In this document: positions 1,552 through 58,125 of the stretch, piece after piece
Layout of the letters: every line of letters starts with the position of its first letter
How positions within the stretch are numbered: the first letter of the stretch is position 1
Assembly (NCBI GenBank): GCA_000091205.1
Contig: AP006494.2
DNA length: 64,000 nucleotides
Direction: 5' to 3' (one strand)
Source: Cyanidioschyzon merolae
Lineage: Eukaryota
Notes under the pieces: model-generated
What the model was told of the DNA's origin: nothing
Databases searched by the model: none
The model's input: only the letters and a program-made list of their open reading frames with translations
Made by a program: the position numbers and the translations under genes

Positions 1552-1766
1552 GATGCTTCCGTTTTTACCAGCTCCGTGCCAAAAACTTCCCCAGAACAAT
1601 AAAGGTGTGATCACTCTGACGACTTGCTGAGAACCGCGCCCCTTGCAGGCGCTCGGCGATGCTTCCGTTTTTACCAGCTCCGTGCCAAAAACTTCCCCAG
1701 AACCATAAAGGTGTGATCACTCTGACGACTTGCTGAGAACCGCGCCCCTTGCAGGCGCTCGGCGCT
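1552..1766. repeat. Two tandem copies of a ~107-bp unit (gatgcttccgtttttaccagctccgtgccaaaaacttccccagaac[a/c]ataaaggtgtgatcactctgacgacttgctgagaaccgcgccccttgcaggcgctcggc)
   Basis: Direct visual match of 1552-1658 with 1659-1766, with one substitution. The repeat lies about 280 bp downstream of the kinase stop codon. Confidence 0.85.
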
Positions 1767-5370: not shown

Positions 5371-6781
5371 TATTGGCTGCATGGAGCAAACTCGAAAACG
5401 ACGGCGGACGGGATGTTTTCATACCCTCGGCTTTGACTGGAGACAAGCGCTCGCGACTGCCTTTATGCCACCAGAACCACGAGGCTTTTCCGCAGCCGCG
5501 TGCCAACGCGCAACACGTTGGCAGACGGTACAGCCTCGAGCTCGTCGACGGACGCTTTCAGAGCGTCGGCTACAAATGCTATACGTCAGCCGTCGAGAGT
5601 TTCTGTGGCAACTCGCAGCGGGCGCGGCAACGCTGGGCTTTCACAGTGTGAAAAAACCTGTGGCGCCAGCGGCTTCAAACTCGGCACCACCGGCGCCCGT
5701 GAATGGGCGCTTGGCACCACTGGGTGCTATCTTCGACACGATGATCGGCTCTTTTCTACCACCGCGACCTGAGCGACTCTTATCGAGGCGAATTCGGCAT
5801 AAAGGAGCACGCTCTGTTCTCTTGGTCGGGGAGACACACACGGACCGACAACACCATCGGGTGCAACTGGCGTTGCTGGACTCGTTTGTGAAGCATGTTC
5901 GAGGTCAGCGGAATGAGTCGATTGCAGGAGCTCCAATTGCGATCGGCATGGAGCATTTCTATCGGCAGCATCAAGTGCATCTGGATCGGTACATTGCGGG
6001 CAAGATTGAGCTACGACAGTTACTCGCTATTACTCGTTTCGAACTTACCTTTGGGTATAGCGCGCAACTTTGGCAGGATATTTTGGAGTATGCACGGGAA
6101 AACCGTATTCAGGTTGTTGGTCTCAATACTCCGTTCGAATTGGTGCAGCTGGTTGCCCACTACGGCCTGGATCACTTACCAGAACGTTTGTATGAAGTGC
6201 TTCCTCGCGATATGGATGTGCATGGTAATGCTGCACACCGTGAGCGTTTTATTCAGAGGATGAAAGCGTTGGGGGTGGAAGCGCATGGTCCACTCATTAA
6301 CGACGAGGCAGCACTGCAGCGAATGTATGAATCGCAGGTGCTCTGGGACGAATACATGAGCGAATCGGCGGCCTTGTGGCTAGAGCGGAACCCCCGCGGT
6401 CACTTGTGTATTTTTGCGGGTAATGGTCACGTCGAAGGCCGTGTTGGGATTCCAGACCGCCTGACTCGTCGTTCTGGGAGGCCGACCTTCACCGTCGTGC
6501 CGTATACGGTGCCGTTCCAATCAGACGGCTGGCCCGATATACCGCATCCCGGCAACAGAGATGTCGGAGATTGGCTCTGGTACCTGCCTGTAGGATCTGG
6601 GGGTGCCGAATCTGACGAATCGGACCCCAAGTCGCAGCGACAGCAACGGTTCGGGGAGCGTTTCGGCTATCGAATCGCACGCAGTACCGAGTCCGACATG
6701 AGACTGATGGGGCGAGGCGCAGCCAGAACCATTCAGAGAGGTACGCAGACGAAATCTGTGGACGAGCCGGACTGGGTATGA
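5366..6781 (+). CDS. ChaN/Tiki-like (haem-binding uptake / iron-regulated family) protein with twin-arginine-type signal peptide; the true start may be a downstream Met
   Basis: SRREFLWQLAAGAATLGF (RR followed by a hydrophobic h-region) at about 5585-5640, preceded by an approximately 70-aa basic leader. VLLVGETHTDRQHH and a GNGH motif are typical of the ChaN/Tiki/TraB GxxH fold. Confidence 0.55.
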   Translation: MAIGCMEQTRKRRRTGCFHTLGFDWRQALATAFMPPEPRGFSAAACQRATRWQTVQPRARRRTLSERRLQMLYVSRREFLWQLAAGAATLGFHSVKKPVAPAASNSAPPAPVNGRLAPLGAIFDTMIGSFLPPRPERLLSRRIRHKGARSVLLVGETHTDRQHHRVQLALLDSFVKHVRGQRNESIAGAPIAIGMEHFYRQHQVHLDRYIAGKIELRQLLAITRFELTFGYSAQLWQDILEYARENRIQVVGLNTPFELVQLVAHYGLDHLPERLYEVLPRDMDVHGNAAHRERFIQRMKALGVEAHGPLINDEAALQRMYESQVLWDEYMSESAALWLERNPRGHLCIFAGNGHVEGRVGIPDRLTRRSGRPTFTVVPYTVPFQSDGWPDIPHPGNRDVGDWLWYLPVGSGGAESDESDPKSQRQQRFGERFGYRIARSTESDMRLMGRGAARTIQRGTQTKSVDEPDWV

Positions 6782-15600: not shown

Positions 15601-17599
15601 CGCGCTGCGCTTCCGATGTAGGTTCCGTTCGCTCGTAATACGCTGCAGCATACGAGTCTTCCACTGCGCGCTGTGCTCCTGCTGCAGGTTCAGCGACATG
15701 GTTGCTCAGGCTCGACTTGAGCGATATCCGGCCTGCCGCTACTGTAGCAGTTGACAGCTGCGTGCCCGGCTCTATAAAACGCTCATCCGCGGTTCCCGAT
15801 GACCACGACGAGGCATGAGCAGCGTCAGCCGGATCTATGTGCTCCGAACCGAAACCCTTCCCAGTCGACTGAGACATTCGCGTTCGGCGGGTGCCGCTCC
15901 CGCGCTGGCTGTTGCTCTCCGCCCGAAATTCAATGCGCTCAGCGGCTGCTTCGAGGAAACGCGTCAGCCTCGATAGCGTGAAGAGGAGGTGAATCACCGG
16001 CGAGGAGCGATGCGTCCACGAGACAAAGCTTACATGCATCCGCATTCGTTGCAGTTCATTCACGTACTCATGCAGATTGCCGCTGAATGCTATTACGGTT
16101 GAATGGCCCCGTGATACAAACGTTTCCGCCAATAACGCATCAGCGGACGTTGCCAACACGGCGGATGCAATATCCATCATACGGCGAACAGCTTTGCTGA
16201 GCTCGGGTGTCTCCTGCCCCTGCTGAAGTTCTGCTTCGCATTGTGCCATAAACTGCGCCAGCTCGTGATCAGTCTCCTTCTTGATCGCCTGTAACCGTCC
16301 ACGGATAGTTGACACGTTACCAGAGACAGCAAAATAACCCAAAGCACCCGCTAATAAGGCAGAATACGCATTGCCCCCCGAGGCGGCCGCAGTTGCAGGT
16401 GCCGCACCGGTGCCGATCGGGCTCGCCCATGACGCTGTGCGGTGTAGGCGTCTTGTAGTGCGTCGTCCCGCTTGTGTATGGCCCTCCATAAGACGCACCT
16501 GGTGCCACTGGAGCGTCGGCGTTGTAGCCTGGTCCGATGGACCGAGCCATCCGGTGCCGGCAGTGGACCACGATGTTGCCGCAACGCCGCCAGCGCCGAT
16601 CATTCGCCTCCAAGCGGATGCCACTGGGATTTCCCATCGATTTTGCGGCACTTTTTCATGCTCTTGCCGATGATGATAATGGTACTGATGGTGCTGATGA
16701 GCATCATGCTCGCTCTCACGATATTGTCGTCGGTGCGAATACCGATAGCGTAGGCGATGCGGGTCGCATCCCGCCAGTGACGTTGACTCGGGTGGCTCCA
16801 TCCGAAGGAGCATCACGTCTTGGTTGCTGCGCAGTTCGGTCGGAAGCGATGCACTCACGATGTGAGCGTCAGCGGGCTCAGAGTCGCTACTGGGCGCTTC
16901 GCAGCGTGCATCACTCACCAGTAATCGCTGTGACTTGGCAAACGCCTCCGATCGACGTCTTTCCCCAGAGGCTTTGCGTCGTTCGATCCGGGTAGTCTGA
17001 TCGCTCATCCGTGCCCTTCCAGTAGACTCCGCTTCGTCATCATCATCATCATCATCATCACCGTCACCATCGTGATCAGCCAGTTGTTGCAGCCGAGCGA
17101 AAACGGGAACGTCTCCGGTCGCCGCTGGGAACCCATCCGCTTCAACCGCTGCCTGCAGTGCTGCCACGTTGTCAACGCTTACAGGAGTCGAGCTCGCGTG
17201 CTTTATTGTCTCGTTAGAGAGCATCCAACTATCTTCGCGGCTTTCGGCGCCAGCGAGATAACCTTCCAAGCCGCTCGAGTCTGAGCTCCAGCCCGAGTTC
17301 CGTCTGAGGTCGAGCGCGTAGCGCTCCGCCAAGAGCTGCGCTGTTGTCTGTGGTCGTTCAACTGGAACGCTTACACCGACAGCGGTCAGCGCGCTCTGTA
17401 GCGACTGAACCTGGCGCTCGGTGGCGGCATCGCTTACCGGGTCAGCGACAGGCACGTCGCTTGCCTGCGCACCTGTGTCTACGCAAGCGCACTCACTACC
17501 TGGGACGTGCACCGGCTCATCAACGTGCGCACGCTCGCTCTCGTTCGCACCTGCTCGCATCCAAAGACGCGATGACGTCCACGATCGCAGGTTCCACAC
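9689..17599 (-). CDS. Giant (2636 aa) Greatwall/Rim15/MAST-like AGC protein kinase with long low-complexity arms
   Basis: A single uninterrupted 7.9-kb ORF. The kinase domain lies at about 13350-11900 ([16 protein letters not shown] ... [12 protein letters not shown] ... DFGLSK). An approximately 215-aa insertion separates DFG (about 12910) from GTPDYLAPE (about 12250), the hallmark of Greatwall/Rim15. [15 protein letters not shown] tail. A Cys-rich [21 protein letters not shown] motif sits at about 14470-14580. Confidence 0.8.
10094..10143. repeat. Coding microsatellite (GTT)n then (GTC)n inside giant kinase gene (encodes poly-Asn/poly-Asp on minus strand)
   Basis: gttgttgttgttgttgttg followed by gtcgtcgtcgtcgtcgtcgtcgtcg, read directly. 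Similar runs occur at 14820-14850, 15215-15235, 17040-17065 and 13760-13790. Confidence 0.9.
11513..11650. repeat. In-frame 69-bp tandem duplication (2 copies) inside giant kinase gene
   Basis: ctgtccaccctgtcgcatttca[a/g]gatgcgctgctacgtcactccagcgaggctccgaagcgtgca repeated back-to-back. It yields [12 protein letters not shown][P/L]EMRQGGQ twice in the protein. Confidence 0.8.
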
Positions 17600-18799
17600 A
17601 AAATAGTGACAGCAAGCACCTGCTCACGGCTTTTCGTACGGTGTGGCCGCCGCAGAAGCCCCGCTCGCCGGCGATGGCAACACACCGGAAACGACACTGG
17701 CCCCCGTGTTTCTCTGGAGTGCTGCTGCTGAGACCCCAATGGGTTCACAGCCAATACCAGCTGTTACAGCGTCCGCGTATTCGGTGTTCGCTGTCTCGAG
17801 CTGGCAGCGCAGTGCGCGAGGAGTACCAGATGGGCCCGTTTCAAGCTGCCCTGCGAGTGCCACGACGGTATTGTCCAGGTTGTCGTGAGGCACTGGGATG
17901 GACAGATTGGGAAATGGGACAGATTTGCCATCTGAGTGACTGCGGCGGCGGCGGCGGCGGCGGCGGGATCTCGACTTTGCGCATCGATCTGCGATCTGGG
18001 ATTTTTTCTCAGATGTCAAAAAGTGCCCAGTGATCAGGGATCCCAGATTGCGGGATGGGTAGGTATTCGTTATCGAAAAAGCGTCCATGATGCTTCACGA
18101 TACCTCCAAGTTCCATTACTTGTGCTTCCGCTAGGATGCACTGGTCGTTTCGTACGTTCTATCGAGCGCTAAGTGTCTGCTTTGCTGCACCCTGCTGAAG
18201 CGTCTACACCGACAGAGCAGATGCTGCGCGGAGACAGCGCGGCGTTGCTGTACCACTGATGACTTCGGCTCGAGGCGCGGTCCATCTGATAAGGGATCAG
18301 GATTCATGATCATTCTGGGATCCAGCGATCTGCGTAGACAGACGCACTGGCTGCGGCAGCGCGAAGCGATATGCTACGAGATAATCGTCATATTGGCGAC
18401 GCCCAGACGCAGTCTAAGTGTACCTGGTCTCGGAATAAACCGCGTTGCCGACGAGTTACTCAGATCTCAATAGAGTACTAGGCACTGGGTGCAGCATGGA
18501 GCACCAGCCTGGCAGACTTGTCCGGCTCGCAGGACATTCCGCCTGGAAGGTAAACGTTCGAAATATGGAAACATTTCCCCCCTTTGAACGTTTACCGTAG
18601 AGGGGAAAGAACATTTTATCCAGTTGGTAGTTAGTCCTTGGTTTATGATCCGTTTTGTACATGGTGCGCTCGAGATGCGCACACCCATATCTGGCAGGCA
18701 TGCGACCTAGCATGTGCATCTCGCCGCTGAGGGGAAACGCGAACCTGATCATGAGCGTATTGCTCTGACTAACAAGATGTATTTGCGTTCAAGGCACAA

Positions 18800-19915
18800 G
18801 AGAGTATGTTTTTCTCAGTTCAATTGTGTGTCAGCTCTCAAGTGAGTGTATTCGAGCGATTTTTCGCGGGTTGTAGCAGAAGCTTTCAAAGTGCGTTGTT
18901 TTGAAAAATAGTCGAGATAAATCGGGAAAAATATGGTTGTAGAAGTGGAGGATCCTGGAGGGCCCCGTATCGCCGGCTGCCGCAAAAAAAAACCGAAGAA
19001 CAGTGCCAACCAAAGAGGAACAACACAGGACCAGGAAGCAAGGCGGCGAGGGCCGACACCAAAACCTGCAGGGAAAACGACAGTACGACGAGATGGAAGT
19101 GAAAGCCTGTCTTTTACGCTGCGTCAAGGATCCGTGCAGGGCAAAGTTGCAAGAGGGCATCAGAAACCGTGTCGATTCGTACTCCAGGAGTATTGGAAAG
19201 GCCTGTTCAGGAATGATGCATGTGGTGAAGGTGATGTGTCGCGACGTGACGGACATCCAAACCGTCGAGGTTCCGGACGAGATTTTCGGCAAGACCTTCA
19301 TTCGTCACCTGATGGTTGGAACAGGGGAAACGTCGAGGAGAAATGAGCGAGTTCGTGCCCTCCACGAAAATTACACCAAATACCGCTCCAACGATACTCG
19401 ATACACGGGAGACTCGCGTATTTACGAATACGGGGCGATCAAGTACCTCACGAACCTGAAGAACCACGTGACCATGAACCTCAAAGGCTTCATGATACGC
19501 TCCGTCTTTGCCCTCGACCCGGAGCTGTCTCGCATAGGGATACGGGCCATCATCGACGGCATCAAGAACGATAGTCGGAATGAACAGGAGATCGAATTTG
19601 CCGACAAGAAGACATCACGCAGAGGAAAGAATGAACCTTCTGGAATCCCTGCGGCTATTCAGGAGCACCGTGCAGACTCGGGGCTTGTCAACCCAGCGGA
19701 TAAAGTATCAGAGATGAAAAAGATGACGAAAGATTTTATCCCCGCGTCCAGCGCTATTCCGTGTTTTTGGAGCGAGAACTCGAACGCCAGGCGGAGATGG
19801 AGCTCACTAGGGGAATACGTGAAGATTCGGAGAAGCGGAAGGCTTTCGTAATGGGTAAGCGCTTCAACGTCATTCCATTATGCAACAGCAAGTAGCACTT
19901 TGTGCGAATCGACGC
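18800..19915 (+). mobile_element. Fanzor-like element, 5' part only (left UTR plus N-terminal about 275 codons), truncated at a junction with an unrelated left-end repeat
   Basis: The 5' non-coding block (ttcaaagtgcgttgtt...) and coding sequence match 37250-38330 of the longer copy. YDEMEVKACLLRCVKDPCRAKLQEGIRNRVDSYSRSI matches YDEMVVKTFLLGHMKDPYKEKLRDAIETRVDSYSKSI, and IKYLTNLKNHVTMNLKGFM matches MKYITNLKNHLTKNLERFM. There is an internal frameshift near 19700. Confidence 0.6.
19093..19915 (+). pseudogene. Fanzor-like N-terminal coding fragment (frameshifted, truncated)
   Basis: Shares a conserved ATG (gagATGgaagtg versus gagATGgttgtg at 37481) and about 55 percent aa identity with the 37481-38330 region. 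The track ORF start at 19003 is a GTG, not ATG. Confidence 0.55.
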
Positions 19916-19917
19916 TA

Positions 19918-20140
19918 GCGTCCTTGAATGCACAAAACGACCAGTGCATCCGAGAACAGGTAATGGAACATGGAGGTAGGGCGCATCATGATGGACGCTT
20001 TCCCAAATGCTTGTACCCAGCTCGCAATCCTGGGTCCCTGGTCAACGTAAACGTTTTTTGAACAAAAATGCCTGAAGCAGCTGCATCGGGACTGCAATGC
20101 TGCCAGTATCGACCTTCGACAGTTGATAACGGAACTGGAG
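19918..20140 (+). repeat. Left-end-type repeat, copy A (solo), family shared with 36900-37080 and 57055-57330
   Basis: Three-way alignment: aaacgacc..ccgagaa..ggtaatg..ggaggtagg[g/t]gc..at[g/c]a[t/c]ggacgctttccc[a/g]aa..cg[c/a]aat[c/t]ctgggatcc[c/a]tgg..aacgt..ttg..aaaaa..., extending to aacggaactgg. Confidence 0.55.
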
Positions 20141-20487: not shown

Positions 20488-22275
20488 ATGCCTCAGCTCG
20501 ATTCCTTTACAGGCCGGCGTTTGGTGTTCCGGGCCCCTTTGCTGACGATTACGGCACTCTACAAGGAGCACTCTACTCGGAAAGCGCTCCAAGGCGTTGC
20601 TGTTGCAGGCGGTGGCGGTAGTCAGACTCGCTCTGGCGTGCCAAACGGACTCTGGTTCGTATCCTTGCACCAGCTCGGGTGCGACTCGGAAACCGAAAAC
20701 CTGCTCTACCTCGCGCTGGAAGAGACACCATGCTATGTACACGCTGTGCCCGGACCTGGATATTGGCTTGTGATTATCGTTGCGGCTGCCTGTGTAGAGT
20801 TCGTAACCATATCAACGGACACCACAGCGCACACGCAGCAGCGCGGTCGAATTGCTGCCCCCGCAAGAAACCGTATTTCGCCTTCTGAAACCCGTAATGT
20901 GTCAACAGGACTCGTGTGGCGATGGATCGGTGCCGCAGGCCCCTGGTTAGCTGGCATCGACGAGGACGACGAGGCCCGCGTCTGGTTGCTGCACTGGCCC
21001 AGTGCACGACGCTTTGCAGAGCAGAAGCACCTGAATGACTCGCCCAATGCACCGTCGCTTCAGGCCTTGTACCAAAGCATTCGACTTCCCGCTGGTTTCC
21101 AGTTTGATACGAGCAACGCTGATGCTCCGCTCTGGGCATACTTTCGAATCGACGGTATGGACCGTCTCTCGAGTGGCGCCTTGTCAAGCGACGGATCGTG
21201 GCTTGCGATCACAGGCCTTGCAGCGGATACCGAAGATGCTGCTGCTGCTGCTGCTGCTGCCGTCCTTCAGCACGGAACCAAGAGCGACCAGAGGACGCAT
21301 CGTATCTCGGGACAAGCGCCTCGAGATGCCCGTTCGAGCGCCCGGCTCGCACTGGTCATTTTACCGCTGTACGGTGCCGAGTGCACTGACGCCCTGGGTG
21401 CAAGCGCACCGAAACCAGTGCGGGAGCATCCACCCGCACCTCGTGGCAACATGCTGATCCTCGCGAGCAAGGCACGTTACCGTCACCACCACCGGTGCTA
21501 CGAAGCATGCCGTTCGCAACTGCAACGCGGGCGTCGACATCGTCCTCGTGCACGTCTAGCGCCTCCGTCATCACCTGGACCATGTGTGTTTCTGGATGCG
21601 CACACCTTGATCACGACATTCTGGGACGGCGACGACGCTTCGACGACATTCGCACTATGGCAATGCGGTTCCTCGTCCCGAGACGCACGCCACCGGGAAG
21701 ACTGGAACCTGCGCCGCACTTGGAAGTTGCCGCAAGCACAGCCAGTTACGGCAATGGACTGGTTTGCACCCAATCCATCGTCCACGACACCAGCCCAGAT
21801 CGGTGTGCTCGCCGTGGCGCTGGTGAACGGACACGTTCAAGCGTGGATTGTGGAGGTGCCCTTTGGATGCACGACACGAGCACCGCTGATGTGTTCGAGT
21901 TGGATCCACGATAGCGGACGCATGACAGGACAAGTGCAGCGCTTCTCGCGGCGCTGGTTGCGAGCGGGAGCAGCGCCCCGCCTGGTGCACGGCCTGCCCG
22001 CGAGCGCGCTGCTGGTGCTACCTGTCGCCGAACACCGAAGCAGCGCTGTGGATGACCTCGTCGCTTCAGAACAGTCGCGCTCGTGGCTCCTCTTCTCAAC
22101 CAGCACAGACGGAACGTTGCTCTGTATCGAATTGCGACAAGCATTCGCGAGAACACTACAGCGACGTGCGTTACGATCCCTGATGTTTTACGTTTTCGTG
22201 CTAGGTATTGTGCGCCTGCTGATGAGCCCATGGGCCAGGCAAGACGTCATACGCCACGTCTCTGCTATCGAGTGA
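20488..22275 (+). CDS. Hypothetical protein (595 aa) with predicted C-terminal transmembrane anchor
   Basis: A long ORF in GC-rich context. The C-terminal hydrophobic stretch SLMFYVFVLGIVRLLMS is present, and a (GCT)n Ala tract lies at 21240-21265. No family recognised. Confidence 0.45.
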   Translation: MPQLDSFTGRRLVFRAPLLTITALYKEHSTRKALQGVAVAGGGGSQTRSGVPNGLWFVSLHQLGCDSETENLLYLALEETPCYVHAVPGPGYWLVIIVAAACVEFVTISTDTTAHTQQRGRIAAPARNRISPSETRNVSTGLVWRWIGAAGPWLAGIDEDDEARVWLLHWPSARRFAEQKHLNDSPNAPSLQALYQSIRLPAGFQFDTSNADAPLWAYFRIDGMDRLSSGALSSDGSWLAITGLAADTEDAAAAAAAAVLQHGTKSDQRTHRISGQAPRDARSSARLALVILPLYGAECTDALGASAPKPVREHPPAPRGNMLILASKARYRHHHRCYEACRSQLQRGRRHRPRARLAPPSSPGPCVFLDAHTLITTFWDGDDASTTFALWQCGSSSRDARHREDWNLRRTWKLPQAQPVTAMDWFAPNPSSTTPAQIGVLAVALVNGHVQAWIVEVPFGCTTRAPLMCSSWIHDSGRMTGQVQRFSRRWLRAGAAPRLVHGLPASALLVLPVAEHRSSAVDDLVASEQSRSWLLFSTSTDGTLLCIELRQAFARTLQRRALRSLMFYVFVLGIVRLLMSPWARQDVIRHVSAIE

Positions 22276-29510: not shown

Positions 29511-29884
29511 GTTCTCTTAAAGACTCGGTATAGGCACAGTGGGTGCGTCGTCCTTCGCCCCAGGAACCGGCTCGGTACGCACGCTGTCGCCCGTTGCGAG
29601 CACAAGTGCAAACCCAGCTGCACAACGCGTATCACTGCGTTCTGCGTTTGCGCACACCGGGGATGCAGCGCAGCCGCTCGAGCACTCGGACGTACCACTG
29701 TGAGAGTCGTCTGCCTGGACGCAGTCGAAAGCGTCCCGTCGGATGAATATATGTTCTTGCTTGTCTCCCATCTTCTTCTTCGTGGTCGTATGCTCTTCTT
29801 TGCTCCATAATCGGAGACAAGAGGATTTTCCGGTTTTTCGGGCATCTGGGGGTGACGGCGCGCCAGGATCCTCTGCTTGCATGT

Positions 29885-30950
29885 CCATACCTATTACTTG
29901 GATTTTGTATTTCTTCAAAATAAACGCACTTGTTAATGCCCTTAGATAAGGACCTTTTCGGAGGCAGGAGGACCTGCGGAAGAAAGACGACTTGTGCTCG
30001 CGGTTTGTCCCCGCGGGCTGCACGCTTCAGCGATTCCTCCAGTGAAGCGATCATTATGTGTCACAACAGAGAACAAGCCTTCGATGGGGATGAACCACGG
30101 AGCGTACGGAGGAACCACAAGGAGGTCTAGCACCCAACAGAATCCTCAAAAGCTCGAATGCAAGGGAAACAGTGAGATGCCACGCTGTCCAATAGAGGAA
30201 CGTCGCCAGACGTCAGGGGTAAAGTCGTCAATCCTTTGATAAACTGGGTGCTATTATGTGAGCCTTCTCCACTGGGGAAACTGATGTCGCCACTTGAATC
30301 CACTGCAGCTAGAGCAGATGATGATGTCGTCGTTCTCATCGGGTTCGACTGTGCATACGACGGGCTCCCTCTCCACGAATACCCATATACGCTCCCACGT
30401 TTCGTCCGAAGAAAGTCCTATCAACAGAAAAAAGAAACCGACGATCCTGTGCTTCTCACAGATCGCGACGCTCGATAAACCCTCTCGTTGGGATTTCGGC
30501 AGCAGATAGCCGAGTGTGAACTAGGACTCTCTTCTTGCGACTGTGCCCCTGTGCGTTTCGTAGGACATGAACTAGCCGTAGAGAAACAGAGATTCCGGTG
30601 GTGGCTGCAATCATCGCTTTTATTTTCCGCAAGGTGAACAAAGAGTCGGTTTTGTACCACTGGCCGCAAACAGTGTTTAAGAATATCGGATTCTAACGCG
30701 GACCGCATACACTCCTCTCTTTCAGCGTTCCGCAACCATTTGAAGACTGTGGTATGACTGACCTGAAGGAGGAATGCAGTATTCCTTGCACTGTTCAGTA
30801 AACAATAGTTCTTATAGACGATTCGTCTACGATCTATACAATACATTGCATTGTGATTTCGACCGCCTACGATACACCGCTACGAGGAGGGCACGGTCGA
30901 GTGAAACAAACCTGAGTCAAAAGAATATATAGGTTCACACATCAAGATTG
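29885..30950 (-). mobile_element. Second copy of the composite repeat (HTH-like ORF 30846-30421 plus Fanzor C-terminal fragment remnant 30054-29890), truncated before RuvC-III
   Basis: MIASLEESLKRAARGDKPRAQVVFLPQVLLPPKRSLSKGINKCVYFEEI matches MIALVGESLKRTSHGDTLTHTVFYQQVLLPLGWFSPRHINKCVHFRKI at locus 1. DNA homology continues through 30421-30950. Confidence 0.55.
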
Positions 30951-35028: not shown

Positions 35029-37480
35029 CCTTTGGAGAAGTTTGTTGCCTAACCGACCCTACCAAACCAGCTTCAGAAGTCGCGGTTTTGGTCAACTCAA
35101 ACGTGGACTTTGCGTCGTGCTGCGGACAAACCCAGACAGCGCTGGTTGTCGCTTGGCGGTGGCGTCTCGCGGGCGCAGCACGCCGGCGTTGCCGCTGCGG
35201 ATGCTACACTCGAGTCGGATAAAAATCGAGCACAGAATAGCTTTCCATCTCTTCCCAACACTTCATTTATTTCATAGATTTTTCTTAAATGTACAACCTG
35301 AGCGATCGAAGTGCAGCAATGAGAGATGAAGAGATCATGCGTAAATGAAGGATTCTTGGTCGTTTTTTGGAGTGGCTCTTTCGACGCTTTTCCGCTGGAC
35401 CTCGTTACGTCATCACGATGAAGGTGCGTCACCACCGACGTCACCACGCGTGCCCGAAATAACCGATATTATTATCCAGCTCACACGTTCAAGGTTTTAG
35501 CCTTCTCCGATCCTTACGTGCAGTATGCTCTAATTCACGTACCCGTCGAGGTTTCGAGCTTTCTATTTGAAGTCATCTGCTGGGCGCACTCGTTGGCGCC
35601 TATGGATTGACGGGACATATACTCGACGGCGTGCCTCGATGATGTTTCCGCAGGCTCATGCAGAATATGTTATGAGTTTCTCATGTCAACGGATCGATTC
35701 CGTTCCAAACGCGAATCCTCCTCTCTTCGTGGCCATAACTACAACAAAACGCGACAGCAGCATGATTCCTGTAACGGGAGACGCGCCAACAGGCTCCCGC
35801 CTCTTCTGTCTGCACGGAAACGGGTGCCGGATTCGCACCTGAGCCATCACAACGATCGCTTGGAGTGGAACGTGCGCCAATGCTTCGCGTGAAAGGAGTA
35901 TCGACGGATCGAAACTTCTCGACTTGTTTTGCATACCGAGCCTCGCTCCTGATCCTGTTTCCGTAGCGGACAATGTCGCATTCCACAAATCCTCTATCGA
36001 ATAAGACAGCGTGCCGTTGCGCGTGCAGCGCACAGAGTGCTCATCGACGGGATCGCGAAGAAGAAGCTCTTCTTCGTAGGGTATTGCACAGGGCGCGTAA
36101 ACGGAGGAAAGCATCGAGGCGCGCCGCTCTCAACCCGTCCAGGGCAAGTACCGGGCAATGACGCAAGCGTTCACGCGCCACAGATCTACGCTCGAGGAAG
36201 GACGGGGTTTCGTGGACTTCCTGAAACATCTAAGCACATTCAAACGTCATCGTTGCAAAAGACGCACTGTGGCTGTATAAAACGAATAGAAACAACGCAA
36301 ACGAAGCGTACATCGTACCTACTGCTTCTGCGTAAACAACGTCGACAACACCCAGAAGCCCCCACTCGCGACATGCACGTCACCATCAACATCCCGCAAC
36401 TGCTTCCAACGGAGCTGGGGGCAACGGCGAAACCGACGTATTGAACGCCAGCGATAAAAGAGCATATACAAGAGCAATCATCAAAAAACCCGCAAAGACT
36501 TGTGTTGTTGATGAAGATAGAAACCTAGAACTTAGTGTTTACGTCCGAGTTCACGAAATGGACCCATCCCATGGTTCATACGAACATCGCTGCCTAGCGC
36601 AGGCGCTCCGCGAGGATGCGATCATTGCGTGCAGATCGCCTCAGCGAGAGAGCGCCCCATCGAGATGCTCGCCCCAGGGTATATTCTAACAGCCAAGTTT
36701 CTCCAGCGTGTCGTGCAACGAAGACAAGCCTGCATCCGCAGACTGTCCGAGCACAAACTGACGACGAGACCCGATTCTACGTCGGGTGAACCACGCCTCG
36801 AGCCGACGCCCTTTGTGGTATAGCAAAGCCGTTCGAGCTCTATGAACTATCTGCTCCAGCGGTTCAAGCGCAAAGGTGGATGATTAGGGTAGGTACGAGG
36901 CACACACGATAGGACGTATGAAACGACCAAAATATCCGAGAAGAAGTCTAGGTAATGTAACTTGGAGGTAGGTGCTTCATCACGGACGCTTTCCCGAAAG
37001 CCGTTATCCGTTCCGAATTCTAGGATCCATGGTGAATGAAAACGTCTTGTCAATAAAAAAATCGCGCTCAATGGGCGCACCCCGGAGATCGGGCAGTCAA
37101 CTGACGCGATGCGCGTGCCGTTGTTGAAGGGAAACTCAATTGGGATCAGTAACGTGTTGTTCAGCTGTGAACGTCGGATATCGGTTCAGGCCATAGCAAA
37201 GTACAGTCTTTCGGTTCATTTTTGTTTCAAACTTCAAACAAGTCCAGTCAAGTGTTTTTTTGCAGTATATAACAGCAGGGTTCAAAGAGCGTTCTTGTTC
37301 AAAAAAAACTAATAAAAGGAAAACTATGCAAAAGTAAGTCGACGATCCTGGAGGCTCAGTGTCGCCGGCTACCAGAAGAAAACAAAAAACAGTGCCGAGT
37401 CCAGAAGAAAATGAAGAGAAGGAGGACTGAAAGGGGAGGCTCTACGTCGAAGGCGGCAAGAAAGACGACTGTACGACGAG

Positions 37481-39740
37481 ATGGTTGTGAAAACCTTTCT
37501 TCTTGGACATATGAAGGATCCCTACAAGGAAAAGTTGCGAGACGCTATCGAAACACGTGTCGACTCGTACTCGAAGAGTATTGTCAAGGCGTCGTCAGGA
37601 CTGATGCATTTAGCGAGGGACATGTACGAATACGTCGCGCACATGGAAACAGTCGAGATTCCAGACGAGTTTTTCGACAAGACGTTTATTGGTCGCCTGA
37701 TGCTTGGTACAGAGGAAGCGCGGAAGGAAAATGAGCTAGTGCATGCCCTCCACGAAAATTTTGCGGAATTCCGCTTCGAGGGTATTCGAATCAAGGGTGA
37801 CTGGGGTATTTAAGACTCTGGGGCAATGAAGTACATTACGAACCTGAAGAACCATTTGACAAAGAACCTGGAACGCTTCATGAAACGCGCCGTGTTTGCA
37901 CCCTACCCAGGCATCTCTTGCAATGGAAAATGGGCGATTATCCATGGCATCACGAATGATCGAAAGTATGAAGATGAGATCGAATTTGTCGACAAGAAGG
38001 CGTCAAAAGAGAGCACGAAAGAAGCTTCTGCGATCCGCGCGGTTTTACAAGAGCATCGTGCGCGACTGGGGCTGGCGAATCCAACAGGCAAGGTATCAGA
38101 GCTCAAAAAAGATAAGGAGAGATACTATCGCCTCATCCTGCGCTATTTTGTGTTGTTGGACCGTGAACTCGAACGCGAAGCGGAGATGAAGCTGAGTGAA
38201 GAGACAAATGAAGAGTGGGAGAGACGGAAGGCTTTCCTAACGGGGAAGCGCGTCAATGTGGTTCCGTTGGGCAACATCAAGTCACATTTTGTGACTATCG
38301 ACTCCGCAGTCCTTCATGGCATCATGAGGGAGATCAGTCCCGAGTTCGATGTTAGCAGGGAGGAATTCTCCGGTGAAAACCGGGAGACGTACTGGATGAG
38401 CATCTTCGATTTCAAACGTCCCAAAGTGAGCAAGAAAAAGGTATTCACAGGGTCGATCGAAACAGATGGAGTAGCCTTGTGTGTACACTATCGGCGGTTG
38501 AAGAAAGTTCGTCCAACTCCGCCTTCGGCTGCGCCCGTCATGAAGGATGAAGAAAACAAAGAGGAGGTTCCTGTGACGCAGGAGGAGCAGGATGACGACC
38601 TTGTCGTTGGCGTGACGAAGGATGAAGAAAACAAAGAGGAGGATCCTGTGACGCAGGAGGAGCAGGATAACGATTTTGTCGTTGGCGTGACGAAGGATGA
38701 AGATGAGAAGGAGGCGAGTCCTGCGACGCAGGAGGTGGAGAATAACGACTTTATGGTTGACGCGACGAAGCATGAAGAAAAGAAGGAGGCGGATCCTGCG
38801 ACCCACAAAGTGCAGGATAACGACTTTGTCGTTGGCGCGGACCCTGGGAATACGAGTATCATAAACATCGCTGCTCCCAAGCGTGCGGAAGATGGTACTG
38901 ATGGTAACTTACGTCAGAAAGACATGCGTCTGTTGAGGTTCTCGAGAGCCAGATACTATCGAGAATCGGGAATCATAAATGCAAGGAAGAAAATCGAGAC
39001 TTGGAATTCAGGAATGAAAGAGCACCTGGAAGCTTCGAGCGAGGTGACGAGCCGAGGAGCGGACTTTGAAGCTTTTCGGAAATTCACGGAAGTTCGCGTT
39101 GCTCATTGGGAGGCGCCGTGGGAGGAGTATACCAAGCCCCGGTGGGCTCGTTGGCGTATGAATTTGTATTGTGGGAAGCAGCGGGCATTCGCGAATTTTT
39201 TCAATCAACTGAGTGCCCTGAAGGAGAATCAAAGTGAGAGGTTGGTAGTGACGTACGGAGCAGGGCGCTGGATGACCCAAAAAGGAACTACGCCAGCTCC
39301 AACGACGAGAACGTACAAGGAGTGTGCACGGCGTTTTGTTACGATACCTGTAGATGAGTTCCGAACCTCGTATACACACCATGAGCTGGTGTGTACACTT
39401 CAGAGAGTTCGAGATGGAAAAGTGCCAGACGAACCCTGAGGATATGAAAAAGTACGGACCGCTGACGGAGGAGCAAATGGAAAGGAGAGCGAAATTTCGA
39501 GGGCTACTTGCATTAGTAAGTACAACCAGTGATGGCACGAAACGTATGGAGTTTGTGAACCGTGACTTTCATGCCGCTGTGAATATACGGAGATGCACGG
39601 TGCTGGAGAAGAGACCTCCAGAGTGGACAAGAGAGAACTTTGTTGGACAACCTCTCAAAGTCGAACTATATGAGAAAAAGTTGGAAGCAATAATAGGTGG
39701 CCGGTCCAGAAAGGCTGGGACGCATCTGCACGTCAGTTGA
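37481..39740 (+). pseudogene. Fanzor-like nuclease ORF, disrupted by in-frame TAA (37811-37813) and a +1/-2 frameshift in a tgtgt run (about 39387-39397)
   Basis: Three track ORFs (37481-37813, 37826-39439, 39354-39740) concatenate into one protein when aligned to the 19093 and 4795 copies. The TAA replaces a sense codon (GI*DSGAMKYITNLKNH versus YEYGAIKYLTNLKNH). The frame changes exactly where ..HHELVC / CVHFREF overlap. Confidence 0.65.
38543..38840 (+). repeat. Four tandem approximately 75-bp repeats inside the Fanzor ORF encoding 25-aa acidic units (KDEENKEE[V/D]PVTQEEQD[D/N]D[L/F]VVGVT)
   Basis: Read directly from the protein and DNA. The last unit runs straight into the RuvC-I strand [12 protein letters not shown]. 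Confidence 0.75.
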
Positions 39741-39827
39741 TGACGATTTGTATAGCGCGCGTTCGCCGCCACTACTGTACACTGCCAGCGACGTCGTTCG
39801 ACTTTCGAAGGGCGGTGACACAAGACC

Positions 39828-40871
39828 GTGTACATAAACATGTCTCAGTTGGATGACACACACGATCTACTAAACATGGGGGATGCGGGTTCCGGATCGA
39901 AAGAATCAGACTCTGCCTTGAGGCGTGGTGGTGACGTTTCGGGCGGCAAAGCAGCGCCAGTGAACGGTGCCGTGGCTGCTTCCGAAAGCGACAACGCAAG
40001 CAGCAGTAGCGCCGCATTACGTAATAGCAGCGCGTCGTTCCGGGAAGGTCCACCTGGAAGGCCACCTCTATTGAGCCAGAGGTTTACGGTGGCCCGTCAG
40101 CATCTACCGGGTCAGCTGCATGAGATCCTTATGTGGCGGAACAAGTACCGCTCGGGGCTCGCTTTCGCCTTGGGTAACTTGTTCTTCTATTTCACCACGT
40201 TCGGGGAACTGAGCATCATCACCGTATTCTCTATGATCGTGTTTTGGATCGTGCTACTGGGTTCGTGTCTCGTTCTCCTGAGCCGCGCACTGGCGTACCT
40301 GACGTCAGCGAGCCCCGTACCTGGCGCATCACCCGTTGGTACGACGGCACCGACGCGTCGCTTGCTGAACCGAGAAACTGCGGAGCGGCTCACGGAGAGC
40401 ACCATGAAAACGGTTAACGGGTTGGAGAACCTTTTGCGCGACGCAGCGCATTGTCGTGATTGGCAGCTCACCGTGAAGGTGCTCCTTGGCTCCTATCTGA
40501 TCGGCAAACTGGGACCGCTGTTTCTGAATATGTACATGGGATGGCTCATCTTTCTCAGCGTAATGACGTTACCCAAGGTTTACGAATGGAAGCAGCGTGA
40601 CATTGACGATCTCATTCGGGAAATTCAACCCGTTCTCCAGAGCAAGCTCTATGAAGCCGAGGCGCTCATCAAGAATCATATCAGCAGCGTGCTCTCCCAG
40701 ATACCGCCCAAGGTCCACGAGTACTCCGAGATGCTTCGAGCGCAGCTGCGCGCGCTGACGGGCGCATCCGACCGTGCACGAAGCAGCAGCAGCCGCCCGC
40801 CGTTTTCAGCCGGAACCAGTGCCGCAACATCGTCGTCCATGACAACCAGCGCTGAAACAAAGGAAGACTAA
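39828..40871 (+). CDS. Reticulon-like protein (reticulon homology domain)
   Basis: W..KYRSGLAFALGNLFFYFTTFGELSIITVFSMIVFWIVLLGSCLVLLS, then a loop, then VKVLLGSYLIGKLGPLFLNMYMGWLIFLSVMTLPKVYE. Two long hydrophobic hairpins with the conserved GN..F and W motifs of the RHD. Confidence 0.65.
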   Translation: MYINMSQLDDTHDLLNMGDAGSGSKESDSALRRGGDVSGGKAAPVNGAVAASESDNASSSSAALRNSSASFREGPPGRPPLLSQRFTVARQHLPGQLHEILMWRNKYRSGLAFALGNLFFYFTTFGELSIITVFSMIVFWIVLLGSCLVLLSRALAYLTSASPVPGASPVGTTAPTRRLLNRETAERLTESTMKTVNGLENLLRDAAHCRDWQLTVKVLLGSYLIGKLGPLFLNMYMGWLIFLSVMTLPKVYEWKQRDIDDLIREIQPVLQSKLYEAEALIKNHISSVLSQIPPKVHEYSEMLRAQLRALTGASDRARSSSSRPPFSAGTSAATSSSMTTSAETKED

Positions 40872-44890: not shown

Positions 44891-46480
44891 TCAAACCTGC
44901 TTTTTCGATTCGCTACTATTTCCCTGCTCGAGATGCTTCTGCTCTACGTTGCCGTTCCCATCGGATACATCTGCTTTGCCGCTTGCGTCCGGAAGAGCTC
45001 TAGTCCAGCCGATCTCGGTGACGAGCAGGGCAACTCGCTGTTTGAAGCCGGCTTCAGCGAGCGTCATCGCGCTGTGGCTCGCTGGCGAATACGCTCGCTT
45101 GGGAAAGTTCGTGGTGAGCTCGAAGCGATCAAAGTCGATATCGGCAGAGGTCTCGGCCCAGTCGAAAAGATCGCGGAAGCTCCGTGATAACTCGAAGCGA
45201 CGCTGAGTACTCTTTCCGTCTGGTAAGCGTAGTAGCACTGTGACGACATGCTCACCCGGTTCTGGCTCAGGGCCTAGGGCAGCCCGCTTACGATCCAGCA
45301 TCGCCATCCGTTCGCGCCTTCGTTGATCCTGCTCCGCTGCTTCCTCACGAGCGCGTTGCTCGAATTCTCGACGGGCACGTTCCGCTGCTTGATCCGCCGC
45401 CAGCGCCTCTTGAAACTCTCTATCTTGCTCCTCACGCAGTCGCTGCGCTGATCGGCGTCGCTCACGCATGGTATGAGCAGTTCGAAGCGCATCCCCGTAC
45501 TCCAGAAGCACATTCTGGAGCCATAACAGCACATCAGTGGCAGTGATTGGCGCGTCTCTGCCACCACGCATCGAACGATCCAAATCACTTAGTACTCGAA
45601 GATCGATCAGCTGCCCGAGCGGCCATCGACGTGAAGCGAAGACCACCGCCAGGTACGGGTATCCGGCAGGTGTGAAGTAGGAGGCCAGCTCTACTGCTTC
45701 AGGAGAACGGTTCACCGAGGCTGCATAGAAAACAAAGTTCTCATTCACAAACTGAATGAAGCTCTCATCCGAAAGTATCTCACGGACGAAACGATCTGTC
45801 GCGTGGTGAATTTCTGAATGCAAGTAGAGCAGCACCAATTTGCACCTCTGCGTTGAGTGCTCCAGGGCTTCCTTGAATGTTCCATGGTAAATCGTTGGAT
45901 AGCGGATTGTCATACCGTATCTAGTGCGCAAGTTCTCCTCTAGCTCGGCGACTGCGGCTGCGCCCACAGCTCGCGAGCGACCAGCGTATCGGTAATAACG
46001 ATCTATGCCCATAATACGAGTCACCAGAGATGCGCACCATGCTAATACCATGCGTAATGCTTGGAAGGGGAGCGCCAGGAGCCGACGCAGATGCCCCAGC
46101 ACACCTGAAGGTGTTGCTTGTGCCAGTGCCGGCTGCAGCGCCCGCTCCGGTGTCGACGTTTCCGCGAGTGCGGGTGTCAGCGGCTGCGACTCACTGAGCC
46201 TAGACGCGTGCAGCTGCCCAGAGACCGGGGCACTCGACAGCTCGGACGCATCTGGTGTAGTGCCCGAGGTGTCAGATGTTGACGCGAATTCCAAACTTCC
46301 AGTTCGATTAGGCGGCTGCAGTGCGCCCTCGACACCGCGAGTCAGGAAAGCATCAACGGCTCTTTCAATGTTCCAGTTGTGCGCAGACAAAATGGCTCTC
46401 GCAACTTCGTTATCATCCAGAGCGGCGATATTCTTGAAAAGTGCGAGGGTTTCGTTCTGAGAATCCTCCGTAGCAGCCAT
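44891..46480 (-). CDS. UBA-UAS-UBX domain protein (UBXD7/FAF-like / plant PUX-like p97 cofactor)
   Basis: An N-terminal UBA-like region (ALFKNIAALDDNEVARAILSAHNWNIERAVDAFL), a thioredoxin-like UAS (KLVLLYLHSEIHHATDRFVREILSDESFIQFVNENFVFYAASV..YPYLAVVF), a coiled-coil region with ERARREFEQRAREEAAEQ, and a C-terminal UBX (QRRFELSRSFRDLFDWAE..RFELTTNFPKR). Confidence 0.75.
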   Translation of the reverse strand: MAATEDSQNETLALFKNIAALDDNEVARAILSAHNWNIERAVDAFLTRGVEGALQPPNRTGSLEFASTSDTSGTTPDASELSSAPVSGQLHASRLSESQPLTPALAETSTPERALQPALAQATPSGVLGHLRRLLALPFQALRMVLAWCASLVTRIMGIDRYYRYAGRSRAVGAAAVAELEENLRTRYGMTIRYPTIYHGTFKEALEHSTQRCKLVLLYLHSEIHHATDRFVREILSDESFIQFVNENFVFYAASVNRSPEAVELASYFTPAGYPYLAVVFASRRWPLGQLIDLRVLSDLDRSMRGGRDAPITATDVLLWLQNVLLEYGDALRTAHTMRERRRSAQRLREEQDREFQEALAADQAAERARREFEQRAREEAAEQDQRRRERMAMLDRKRAALGPEPEPGEHVVTVLLRLPDGKSTQRRFELSRSFRDLFDWAETSADIDFDRFELTTNFPKRAYSPASHSAMTLAEAGFKQRVALLVTEIGWTRALPDASGKADVSDGNGNVEQKHLEQGNSSESKKQV

Positions 46481-55670: not shown

Positions 55671-56531
55671 TCATCGGTTTGCGATTGCTCGCTCACAGCC
55701 ACTCCCAATGTACGTACGAATCGAAACGGCTGATGGACGCGCAAGGTGCTTTTCGTTCCTGTACATACCCAGATCAGGCTCGAGAAGTAGCAACTGCGAG
55801 GTATCTGCTGGATCGTGGATCGCTGCTGGCGACACCGTCCAGTCCAAAGCGTTGGCCGTACCACCGCCAGCACCCTCTTCTGCATCCGCGTCATCCAATG
55901 TCGTCCTGCTCGTTTGAACTCGTTGAGCTATCCGGGCGAGGTTCTGTTGGACTTGGCGAACGCGGTTCAGAGCGGCCACAAAGACGGGTACGAACTGTGC
56001 AAACCGACCCTGTGCAAACTCCAAGCGCAGCCGAAAACTCCGTGGTAGCGCCACCTGATCAGCAAAGGCGTTCACCAACAGCTCCAGACGACAAGCACCA
56101 AAAAGCGGCTGCTGAAAACGCTCGTTCCAAATGCCGTGCAAAGGCACCTCGAGACTGTACAGGGGCTGAGGTGCGCCCCAGTTTACCTCCCCTGGGGCAC
56201 GCGCTGGCGCCAGCAGCACCATGCGTACGTTCGTGAGCACTGCAGTCGCTCGGTACAAGTAGCCGAATTGTGACGGGTCCCTGAGTACGTGAGACAAACG
56301 AGCTTGCCAACGAACCGGTGTTTCCAGTGAGAACAGAAAGCAGTCCAGTCCAGACTGCCGCCCGAGGTAACGCTCATCCAAGTACGCAATCGGTAGGCGC
56401 TGTTCCGGGTCGAGTTCAACGTTCGTCGCCATAAACCAATGAATACTAGCCTCCGCCAATGCTTGCAACTGCCACACCGATGAACATGTTCCCAACGAAG
56501 GAGCGCTTCTCGAGAGCAAGCGACCACGCAA
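55671..56531 (-). CDS. Hypothetical protein (286 aa), no recognised family
   Basis: An ORF with ordinary (non-repetitive) amino-acid composition, better looking than the overlapping plus-strand ORF. It could alternatively be non-coding. Confidence 0.35.
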   Translation of the reverse strand: MRGRLLSRSAPSLGTCSSVWQLQALAEASIHWFMATNVELDPEQRLPIAYLDERYLGRQSGLDCFLFSLETPVRWQARLSHVLRDPSQFGYLYRATAVLTNVRMVLLAPARAPGEVNWGAPQPLYSLEVPLHGIWNERFQQPLFGACRLELLVNAFADQVALPRSFRLRLEFAQGRFAQFVPVFVAALNRVRQVQQNLARIAQRVQTSRTTLDDADAEEGAGGGTANALDWTVSPAAIHDPADTSQLLLLEPDLGMYRNEKHLARPSAVSIRTYIGSGCERAIANR

Positions 56532-57054
56532 GACTCGTAGCCTGTATTACTACGCTTTCACGAGCTGTTCACGCGTTCACCTGCCCGCGGGGAAACTTTC
56601 TCGCTTCAGGAGCGCAGGGTGCGCTGGCCTCGGCGACTGCCACGCACAGGCGTGTCCCGAGGCGCTACGCTGCGCTCTATCAGGAGACGCTCGCGCGAGT
56701 GCGCGACACTTGCCAGAAACAGTGAGGATAATGATCAAAGACGCACCGCCACGCGTACCACTGACCCTAGAACCGGCTTGCTACTTGGCATAGCGTCCAG
56801 ATCCGTTGTCGAACTGGGGGTCCTGCAATAGACGCTGACGCTGCGCCTCCTCTAACCCTCGCTACTGCGTTGGATGCTTGCTGCCGTCACCTGCGTGCCG
56901 TAACGACACACCGCAAGACTGGGCGGTGCACGAACCAATAGCTCTGGAGACAAGTCTGGGTCGCTATAATCGCACCATCCCCAGGACTTGGTGATGCAAT
57001 GAACAATGAATCCGAAGGCAAGCATTGGTGATTGCTAGCTAGTTAGCTAGCGGA

Positions 57055-57330
57055 TCCTGAAAGTAGGTGCGGCAGCATAATGGACGCTTTTTCAACTACC
57101 AATATCCATGCATTCCGCAATCTGGGATCCATGATCAATGGAAACGTGTTGTCATCGAAAAAGAATCAGCACTAGTGCTGCGGACGTGGCACTGCGATCC
57201 CGTGAACGCATCCAAGAGCGGACGCACCGAGAACGGAACTCTTGGCTTTGGCTGCCGTTGCCGACCGCTGTGGCATACGTTGAAGCGACTGTTTCGGCAC
57301 TTGCAAGGTATATTACAGAAAAGTGCGTTG
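57055..57330 (+). repeat. Left-end-type repeat, copy C (solo, internally shortened), immediately upstream of riboflavin synthase ORF
   Basis: The head (gtaggtgcggcagcataatggacgctttttc..cgcaatctgggatccatgatcaatggaaacgtg) aligns with 36965-37060. The tail (ggtatattacagaaaagtgcgttgtactaaatg) aligns with the Fanzor 5' UTR at 37255-37300 and 18880-18920. Confidence 0.55.
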
Positions 57331-57336
57331 TACTAA

Positions 57337-58125
57337 ATGCATTGCGTTCAGAAGTTGGGGTTTGTTCCACATTTGTTTGATGTGCACCGAGCAGGGGCCA
57401 CTGGACGGAAACAGAGCGCTGCAGCTTGTACAGCGATCAGGAAGCGTACCCGAAAACAAGTCCAGGCGCTCTTTACCGGGCTTGTTGAGGAGCTTGGCAC
57501 CATCGTGCAGCGCACGGAGACACAACGTGAGCCTCCCGCAGTGGAGCTCAGCATCCGTGCGCCGGGTATCTTTCCAAGTCTGAAGCTTGGCGATAGCGTG
57601 GCGGTGAACGGTGCATGTCTGACGGTCGCGTCGCTTTTGCCGCAACCGGCTTTCCAGGTGACCCTCGCCCCGGAGACACTGAGACGCACGAGTCTCGGGC
57701 AGCTCGGCCTCGGGGATCAAGTGAACCTGGAACGTTCCATGGCCGCTGACGGTAGGTTCGGAGGTCACATCGTGCAAGGACACGTGGACACCACCGGTGA
57801 GGTGCTCGACGTGCGCCTCGAAGGCGATGCGCTGTGGTATACGGTTCGGGTGCCGCGTTCAGCAGCGTCCATGGGGTCAGCGCTACAGCCGGACTGCTTT
57901 CTGTATGTTGTGCCCAAGGGGTTCATCGCTGTGGACGGGGTCAGCTTGACAGTGTGTGACGTGAACGATCGAGAGCGAACGTTCACGTTCATGCTTGTTC
58001 CATACACTCAGGAACATGTGACGTTACCGGGACGACGCCCTGGTGACCTCGTGAATCTGGAGATGGATATCATCGGCAAGTACGTTCAGCGACTTGTTGA
58101 ATCACGACTATCCGCGGTGCGCTGA
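57337..58125 (+). CDS. Riboflavin synthase (alpha chain; two lumazine-binding repeats) with about 45-aa N-terminal extension
   Basis: ALFTGLVEELGTIVQ matches bacterial MFTGIVEE. It is followed by GDSVAVNGACLTV, GHIVQGHVDTTGEV, GFIAVDGVSLTV and LVPYTQEHVTL, and ends with GDLVNLEMDIIGKYVQRL. Confidence 0.85.
   Translation: MHCVQKLGFVPHLFDVHRAGATGRKQSAAACTAIRKRTRKQVQALFTGLVEELGTIVQRTETQREPPAVELSIRAPGIFPSLKLGDSVAVNGACLTVASLLPQPAFQVTLAPETLRRTSLGQLGLGDQVNLERSMAADGRFGGHIVQGHVDTTGEVLDVRLEGDALWYTVRVPRSAASMGSALQPDCFLYVVPKGFIAVDGVSLTVCDVNDRERTFTFMLVPYTQEHVTLPGRRPGDLVNLEMDIIGKYVQRLVESRLSAVR

Follow-up and report, generated by a model that had tools for sequence, protein, structure and literature searches.

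The repeat block upstream of the riboflavin synthase gene of Cyanidioschyzon merolae probably comes from the 3' terminus of a non-LTR retrotransposon family

We analysed a stretch of 64,000 nucleotides of contig AP006494.2 of Cyanidioschyzon merolae (assembly GCA_000091205.1), here called the window, which contains a repeat block upstream of the riboflavin synthase gene ribE. The block had been described, from the letters of the window alone, as the left end of a Fanzor element that also occurs solo and may have been co-opted as promoter sequence. Comparison with related loci suggests instead that it is the 3'-terminal ~165 nt of a Cyanidioschyzon non-LTR retrotransposon family, and that the copy upstream of ribE is a dead fragment; we consider this explanation likely. 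The homology, the boundaries, the reverse transcriptase (RT) partner, the truncation pattern, the A-runs and, in two relatives, the target-site duplications are all observed directly. The result is mainly corrective, as the supposed co-opted solo Fanzor ends appear to be truncated copies of the repeat TE-N2_CMe. The block upstream of ribE is largely known already and is an ordinary kind of object.

C. merolae is a genetically tractable red alga, and its nuclear genome is compact, almost intron-free and about half coding. The only retroelements reported in it are of the non-LTR type, in 26 copies, and it contains a transcribed interspersed repeat of ~3.2 kb, in 253 copies, with an ORF resembling WSV486 of WSSV; these Fanzor-type repeats were described as randomly distributed on the chromosomes (Nozaki 2007, PMC1955436). 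It was this 253-copy repeat, a Fanzor1 family, that later received the name CMe-1A. The CMe-1A consensus is 3169 bp long and represents ~150 copies, and its 5' 635 bp are 95% identical to a separate repeat, TE-N2_CMe, with ~70 copies, for which terminal inverted repeats (TIRs) were not found and the class was left unknown (Bao & Jurka 2013, Mob DNA 4:12, PMC3627910). The class proposed here for the latter repeat is a retroposon tail.

Copies of the block in the window

The recurrence of the block is real, but there are four copies rather than the three seen in the sequence-only reading, which overlooked the one on the minus strand. The CMe-1A consensus was taken from the supplementary file of Bao & Jurka 2013 (PMC3627910) and compared with the window by BLAST. 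The copy upstream of ribE (copy C, plus strand, 57044-57162, with the end given up to ~57167) has the form of a 5'-truncated TE-N2_CMe-type 3' end; positions 57157-57044 correspond to consensus 1-107 inverted (78%, E 2e-19) and are followed by an A-run at 57158-57162. Copy A (plus strand, 19926-20068) has the same form: positions 20057-19926 correspond to consensus 8-144 inverted (80%, E 5e-28), and the A-run is at 20064-20068. The longest copy (plus strand, 36673-37060) is a LINE-type 3' fragment, in which LINE composite positions 3856-4156 (88% identity) are followed by a TE-N2-like terminal block at ~36907-37060 with AATAAAAAAA and an A-run at 37053-37060. Its positions 37052-36770 correspond to consensus 4-282 inverted (80%, E 2e-65). 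This copy adjoins a Fanzor unit, in the orientation opposite to that of the published CMe-1A arrangement. The fourth block (minus strand, ~18002-18164) is the terminal part of a full TE-N2_CMe segment (minus strand, 18002-18665, consensus 1-~647) within a collinear CMe-1A copy, 18012-19925 being aligned to consensus 2-1895. Two further alignments, 37063-39814 to consensus 648-3169 and 4943-5370 to consensus 2737-3168, cover Fanzor sequence.

According to this mapping, the block corresponds to the first ~165 nt of CMe-1A/TE-N2_CMe in reverse complement. All window copies are homologous to TE-N2_CMe or the 5' region of CMe-1A (consensus 1-635), the aligned segments being 1-107, 8-144, 4-282 and 2-647 at 78-80% identity, and by these alignments the solo copies are, in published terms, fragments of TE-N2_CMe. 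The block is ~120-390 nt long across the window copies, as judged by self-comparison and alignment, and the similarity stops in each of them after the short A-run. Thus 20069-20140 and 57168-57330, which had been included in the repeat, lie outside it.

All three solo or terminal copies are situated in 5' intergenic DNA, namely upstream of ribE, of CYME_CML234C (20488-22275) and of a RIM15-like kinase gene (minus strand, 9689-17560); the last two are exact matches to annotated 10D proteins. Copy A directly adjoins a truncated Fanzor fragment, as had been noted, with the junction at 19925/19926, which is kept at 99% identity in the strains L052 and L053. The start of CML234C (20488) is 419 nt downstream of copy A, which is head-to-head with the truncated CMe-1A copy, whose own terminal block is directed at the kinase ATG (17560), ~440 nt away. 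Each tail of this pair faces its nearest gene, and the two distances are similar. Such head-to-head pairs, made of 5'-truncated retro-copies with outward A-tails, occur in the window (18002-19925/19926-20068) and in locus L031 (3546-4874/4959-6064); a single break primed twice, or two events independent of each other, may account for them.

Two coding-related interpretations of the block were considered and abandoned. A short conserved ORF (MDAFS..RNLGS..KK) can be read in two copies; it was rejected because the other copies have a 4-nt indel or no ATG, and the substitutions show no bias towards synonymous sites. A candidate 5' UTR intron, with the donor AG|GTAATGG in the block and the acceptor tttttgCAG downstream, was dropped, the block being a separate, invertible element.

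The ribE gene (plus strand, 57337-58125) encodes a riboflavin synthase alpha chain of 262 aa (Pfam Lum_binding, 3.5e-43) that matches the annotated C. merolae 10D protein with 100% identity and coverage. Its divergent neighbour (minus strand, 55692-56432) was located by tblastn of the genes of metagenome locus L017 against the window, and the intergenic region between the two (56433-57336) is 904 bp long. Copy C occupies ~120-170 nt of it, at 78% identity to the consensus. A palindromic insert gctagctagttagctagc lies within or adjoins the copy at 57034-51, and a weak similarity possibly extends 5' to ~56995 (nhmmer, 56995-57163). Many metagenome copies match this region by BLAST, over 57052-57171 only.

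According to the sequence-only reading, copy C ends about 7 bp before the ribE ORF, in a piece of the Fanzor 5' UTR at 57180-57330 with a TATA-like motif. The copy in fact ends ~175 bp before the ATG at 57337, since the spacer 57168-57336 (plus strand) has no detectable similarity to CMe-1A, TE-N2 or the LINE. Its Smith-Waterman score against the CMe-1A consensus is 22 (shuffled mean 22.3), and a profile of the 5' region of the Fanzor unit has no match in it even at E<=100 with filters off (nhmmer); the supposed 5' UTR piece is therefore at chance level. Both 57168-57336 and 56433-57051 are unique by BLAST among all fetched loci. The motif gtatat[a/t]acag, present as gtatattacag at 57308-57318, is not a family feature: as an 11-mer it matches only its two source sites, and this position varies in the family, being GTTTATAGCAG in the consensus and GGTTGTAGCAG in the 18-kb copy. 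Judged by these sequences, the motif is a resemblance, picked out after the fact, of a single element copy to the flank of ribE.

A related alga (L017) with the same gene order and a RibE protein 66% identical to that of C. merolae has a ribE intergenic region of 154 bp without the block. Thus the insertion is lineage-specific and not part of an ancestral promoter. In the near-identical metagenome strains the insertion is fixed, so they have no power for a test of constraint. The same strains, 97.6-99.5% identical to 10D, have the site already filled, and the next relative (RibE 66%) is too distant for intergenic DNA to be aligned in an empty-site comparison. No target-site duplications above chance were found around the window copies, copy C included; as these copies are only ~78-80% identical to the consensus, any duplication may have decayed.

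Since metagenome contigs show that the block is separable from Fanzor and forms the 3' end of a LINE, copy C is best read as a dead, 5'-truncated retroposon relic in the intergenic DNA that separates ribE from its divergent neighbour; this is likely to the same degree as the retroposon explanation as a whole, of which it is a part. The situation resembles transposon-derived promoters in that an element fragment is found no more than 200-450 bp from start codons. It differs from exapted promoters in that a relative lacks the insertion, and there is neither conservation beyond the neutral expectation nor any sign that the host depends on the ribE copy. We infer that copy C is more probably a passive passenger than a promoter.

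The proposed retrotransposon family

All 42 close homologues of the Fanzor protein come from JGI metagenomes. The L-numbered loci are metagenome contigs fetched for these homologues, together with 31 further loci picked with a 23-position pattern from the 3' part of the block. Some of them belong to the same species as the window, with 97.6-99.5% identity and the same insertions and junctions. As TE-N2 copies in the metagenomes were chosen by a 3'-terminal pattern, their shared terminus is partly a matter of ascertainment.

Locus L051 contains one contiguous element of 4260 nt, 90% identical to a composite of L014 and L001; the block and its upstream neighbour make up the final ~420 nt of the L051 element. 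The ORF of this element has the motifs PGIDGIP, YRTISL, FIDFQEAFDTV, RQGD..SPLLF and FADG and a CCHC-like tail. The RT ORF of this type matches Pfam RVT_1, its best matches among solved structures are R2 and LINE-1 ORF2p, and over the RT domain it is 82-85% identical to the protein annotated as 'retroelement, alive [C. merolae 10D]' (Nozaki 2007; NCBI cluster P0166/P0167). An autonomous, RT-encoding member with the same 3' end therefore exists, as read in metagenome relatives that are 82-90% identical to C. merolae sequences.

The LINE and TE-N2 share ~300 nt of 3' sequence, the terminal motif AAACGTYTTGTCA and an A-run. The common 3' end is combined with variable 5' truncation: five LINE-type fragments, which were not the basis of locus selection, start at 2929, 2999, 3615, 3703 and 3856, and all reach the tail. 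The last of these starting points belongs to the window fragment 36673-37060. The inner ends of TE-N2-type copies (107, 117, 142, 186, 275, 423, 566 and ~640) are similarly variable, although they constitute weaker evidence, as these loci were selected with the 3'-terminal pattern. The terminus is ...AAACGTYTTGTCATC(T)G, and GTCATC(T)G is followed by 4-8 A in most independent loci examined; L020 has no A-run. An A-rich 3' tail is thus present, as in non-LTR elements, with the reservation that runs of 4-8 nt are short and could be element sequence rather than a remnant of poly(A). The LINE fragments in L036 and L044 are flanked by 14-bp target-site duplications, 13 of 14 positions being identical.

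Solo full-length TE-N2 begins with GAACAAAGAACAG... and ends with ...GTCATCTGAAAAA; these ends are not inverted repeats. TIRs at both ends with a fixed target-site duplication, as in DNA transposons and MITEs, were not observed, the full copies having no inverted partner. The Rfam search yielded no match at the gathering threshold across the window and none at E<=1 on 17900-18750. TE-N2 is not a canonical SINE, since it has no recognisable Pol III head (tRNA, 5S or 7SL).

These observations suggest a family in two forms: an RT-encoding LINE of ~4.3 kb and a non-autonomous TE-N2_CMe of ~640 bp with the 3' region of the LINE. Copies of both would arise by target-primed reverse transcription, which would explain why they keep the 3' end and the short A-run and have a variable 5' cut. 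Copies C and A would then be dead-on-arrival fragments of this family. This is analogous to LINE-SINE pairs of the stringent type and to HAL1-like derivatives, where an RT element and a short non-coding element share the 3' tail and copies are 5'-truncated; two of the copies here have 14-bp target-site duplications. However, TE-N2 differs from typical LINE-SINE partners in having no tRNA, 5S or 7SL head and very short A-runs, and its mobilisation in trans by the LINE is putative. TE-N2_CMe was published as the 5' part of a Fanzor element, whereas here it appears as a non-LTR retroposon 3' end on the opposite strand.

Distance to start codons

The tail of the block lies 103-480 bp upstream of a long ORF on the same strand in about ten of the twelve independent copies, and six of the eight copies with both neighbours identifiable are between divergent ORFs (binomial p~0.004 against 25% expected); genes were approximated here by long ORFs in the fetched loci, and the samples are small. 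These counts are weakly suggestive of a preference of the TE-N2/LINE tail for promoter-proximal DNA.

One alternative, possible although doubtful, accepts the block as a retroposon tail and supposes that the LINE/TE-N2 machinery favours promoter regions, due to open chromatin or a tethering factor, with insertion typically 100-480 bp upstream of the start codon. Both counts agree with it, as do the near-equal distances (~440 and 419 nt) at which the two head-to-head copies of the window face their nearest genes. However, the same small sample and ORF proxies limit it, and in divergent regions either orientation faces a gene, so that no orientation bias is established. Moreover, in a half-coding genome only intergenic insertions survive, and short intergenic regions cap the distances. 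Two copies (L001, G9) face gene 3' ends, and the chromosomal distribution of the Fanzor-type repeats was described as random (Nozaki 2007, PMC1955436).

For the right end of the Fanzor unit, a separate feature, the support is much stronger. At seven of ten independent loci, the ATG of a long host ORF on the same strand follows this end (consensus 3169) at a distance of 0-55 bp: 39814/39840 and 5370/5366 in the window, 3725-3798 in L003, ~2632 in L009, 5970-6055 in L014, 818 in L032 and 4919 in L026. The host ORFs are a reticulon-like protein, a ChaN-domain protein, IF-2, a DAO-type oxidoreductase, SMC and ORFs of 308 and 575 aa; at the remaining three loci the distance is +177, +436 or there is no such ORF. 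The reticulon and ChaN starts named in the earlier observation are among these loci: 39814 is 25 nt before the ATG at 39840 of the reticulon-like gene (39840-40871), and 5370 compares with 5366, the start of the ChaN-domain gene (5366-6781), both genes being exact matches to annotated 10D proteins. The proximity of right ends to start codons is far tighter than the gene association of the left-hand block. The wider question raised is that of mobile DNA close to start codons in a very compact genome, the case being weak for the TE-N2 block and strong for the Fanzor right ends.

The Fanzor unit and its left edge

The Fanzor unit of the long element (plus strand, 37061-39814) corresponds to CMe-1A consensus 648-3169. 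Its ORF has the RuvC motifs GADPG, VDEFRTS and NRDFHAAVNI and is disrupted by an in-frame stop at 37811-37813 and a frameshift at ~39400; the homologous ORF in L001 is intact over 752 aa. A Pfam search with the window ORF yielded no match, and the assignment is based on the RuvC motifs, the DUF8286/PF26935 tags of the homologues and the identity to the published CMe-1 protein. A second unit is present as a fragment (plus strand, 18666-19925; consensus 648-1895), in which the left-edge hairpin and the 5' UTR are followed by a degenerate Fanzor ORF of which the N-terminal half remains. The ORF of the long element contains a tandem repeat of 75 bp (25 aa, acidic) at 38536-38840, with ~4 units in the window and in L001, 3-5 in other loci and 1 in the consensus.

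Homology between Fanzor units starts at consensus 648, that is, at 37061 and 18666 in the window, 9673 in L001, 3397 in L014, 8998 in L002 and ~1037 in L003, and this edge has a GC hairpin GCGCGGTCGATACGCGC. The sequence to its left varies. TE-N2 in antisense, as in the published arrangement, is found in the 18-kb copy of the window, L002 and L020; a sense TE-N2/LINE tail, whose A-run touches the Fanzor edge, is found in the long element of the window, L032 and L037; an RT-bearing element is found in L001 (1.3 kb) and L014/L051 (4.3 kb). The units in L003 and L026 have no block and share a different left extension of 55 nt (L003 958-1037; L026 2272-2325). This extension, a candidate for the original left end of the unit, holds a perfect palindrome, GGACACGTGTCC. 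Thus, unlike in the published presentation, the Fanzor unit is separable from TE-N2_CMe at consensus 648. Setting the real unit (consensus 648-3169) apart from its retroposon neighbour matters for the definition of Fanzor ends, TAM and ωRNA in C. merolae.

LINE-family sequences of three lengths (TE-N2 and the 4.3-kb LINE at full length, and a LINE truncated at 2999) and in both orientations meet the Fanzor unit at consensus 648. The junctions are at 37060/37061 and 18665/18666 in the window, 9667-9673 in L001, 3397 in L014, 1115/1117 in L051 and 4649-4660 in L032. Simple independent insertions do not explain such an exact meeting point, and this counts against the retroposon explanation. In L032 a repeat of ~15 bp, TCAAT[C/G]G[C/G]CGCA[T/C]CC, occurs on both sides of an inverted TE-N2; it is duplication-like and derived from the Fanzor hairpin, as if reverse transcription had been primed in the hairpin.

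One could imagine that the LINE family and the Fanzor unit are mechanistically coupled, with recurrent priming at the hairpin-bearing left edge, spread of the CMe-1A composite as antisense retroposon cargo, and effects on flanking promoters; we regard this as unlikely. Such coupling would explain why some copies retain the TE-N2 end and break off within Fanzor, at consensus 1084 and 1895 (one further copy with a TE-N2 end stops at 877, at a contig end). Given the right ends 0-55 bp before start codons, it would also place element sequence on both sides of divergent promoters, and the composite could drive or insulate the flanking genes.

That the block is a genuine left end of a Fanzor DNA transposon, its solo copies being remnants or MITE-like derivatives co-opted as host promoters or 5' UTRs, is very unlikely. 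The block is indeed at position 1 of the CMe-1A consensus and also occurs solo, and the Fanzor unit follows it immediately and with the same orientation in the long element, L032 and L037. The sense junction is 96.6% identical between two loci, so the composite may itself be a repeated unit, and the window copies are all in 5' flanks of annotated genes. However, the block is not intrinsic to the unit, which starts at 648: a Fanzor or TnpB left end should have a fixed position and orientation in all members, whereas the block has the opposite orientation in the consensus arrangement and is missing from some units. The same terminus ends an RT-encoding LINE, with 5' truncation, A-runs and target-site duplications. 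At ribE, the supposed 5' UTR piece is at chance level, unique DNA separates copy C from the ATG ~175 bp away, and the 154-bp region of the relative is free of the block. Under the retroposon explanation, the block would resemble a Fanzor left end because LINE-family insertions in either orientation adjoin the true left edge at consensus 648, and amplification of one such composite would have given rise to the published CMe-1A consensus.

The reading of 18002-18164 and 19926-20068 as TIRs of a ~2-kb DNA transposon, with solo copies as half-elements, is hardly credible. In its favour, a 2-kb segment is enclosed by these two inverted blocks, which are ~72% complementary. However, the right end of full CMe-1A copies (L002, L020, L030) is without an inverted partner, and in the window the right-hand block carries an A-run of its own and meets Fanzor at an internal position (consensus 1895). 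A LINE fragment and a CMe-1A fragment are arranged head-to-head in the same way in L031, and Bao & Jurka (PMC3627910) found no TIRs.

Degenerate fragments of Tc1/mariner-type transposases were observed together with Fanzor pieces at 3973-4938 (plus strand), 29908-30880 and 29834-29931 (both minus strand) and 2839-3267. The transposase fragments contain the motifs PPYAPWFIPIEGLF and LIMDNIVFHKS, are 68% identical to each other and are joined to Fanzor pieces, one to a Fanzor 3' end (4943-5370) and the other to a fragment of the Fanzor 5' UTR and start at 29834-29931 (nhmmer, E 2e-7). Finally, immediately beyond the 3' end of the minus-strand ORF 44891-46480 there is a 251-bp inverted repeat (44040-44290/44438-44688), whose arms are 91% complementary and separated by 147 bp; it is unrelated to the Fanzor, TE-N2 and LINE families.
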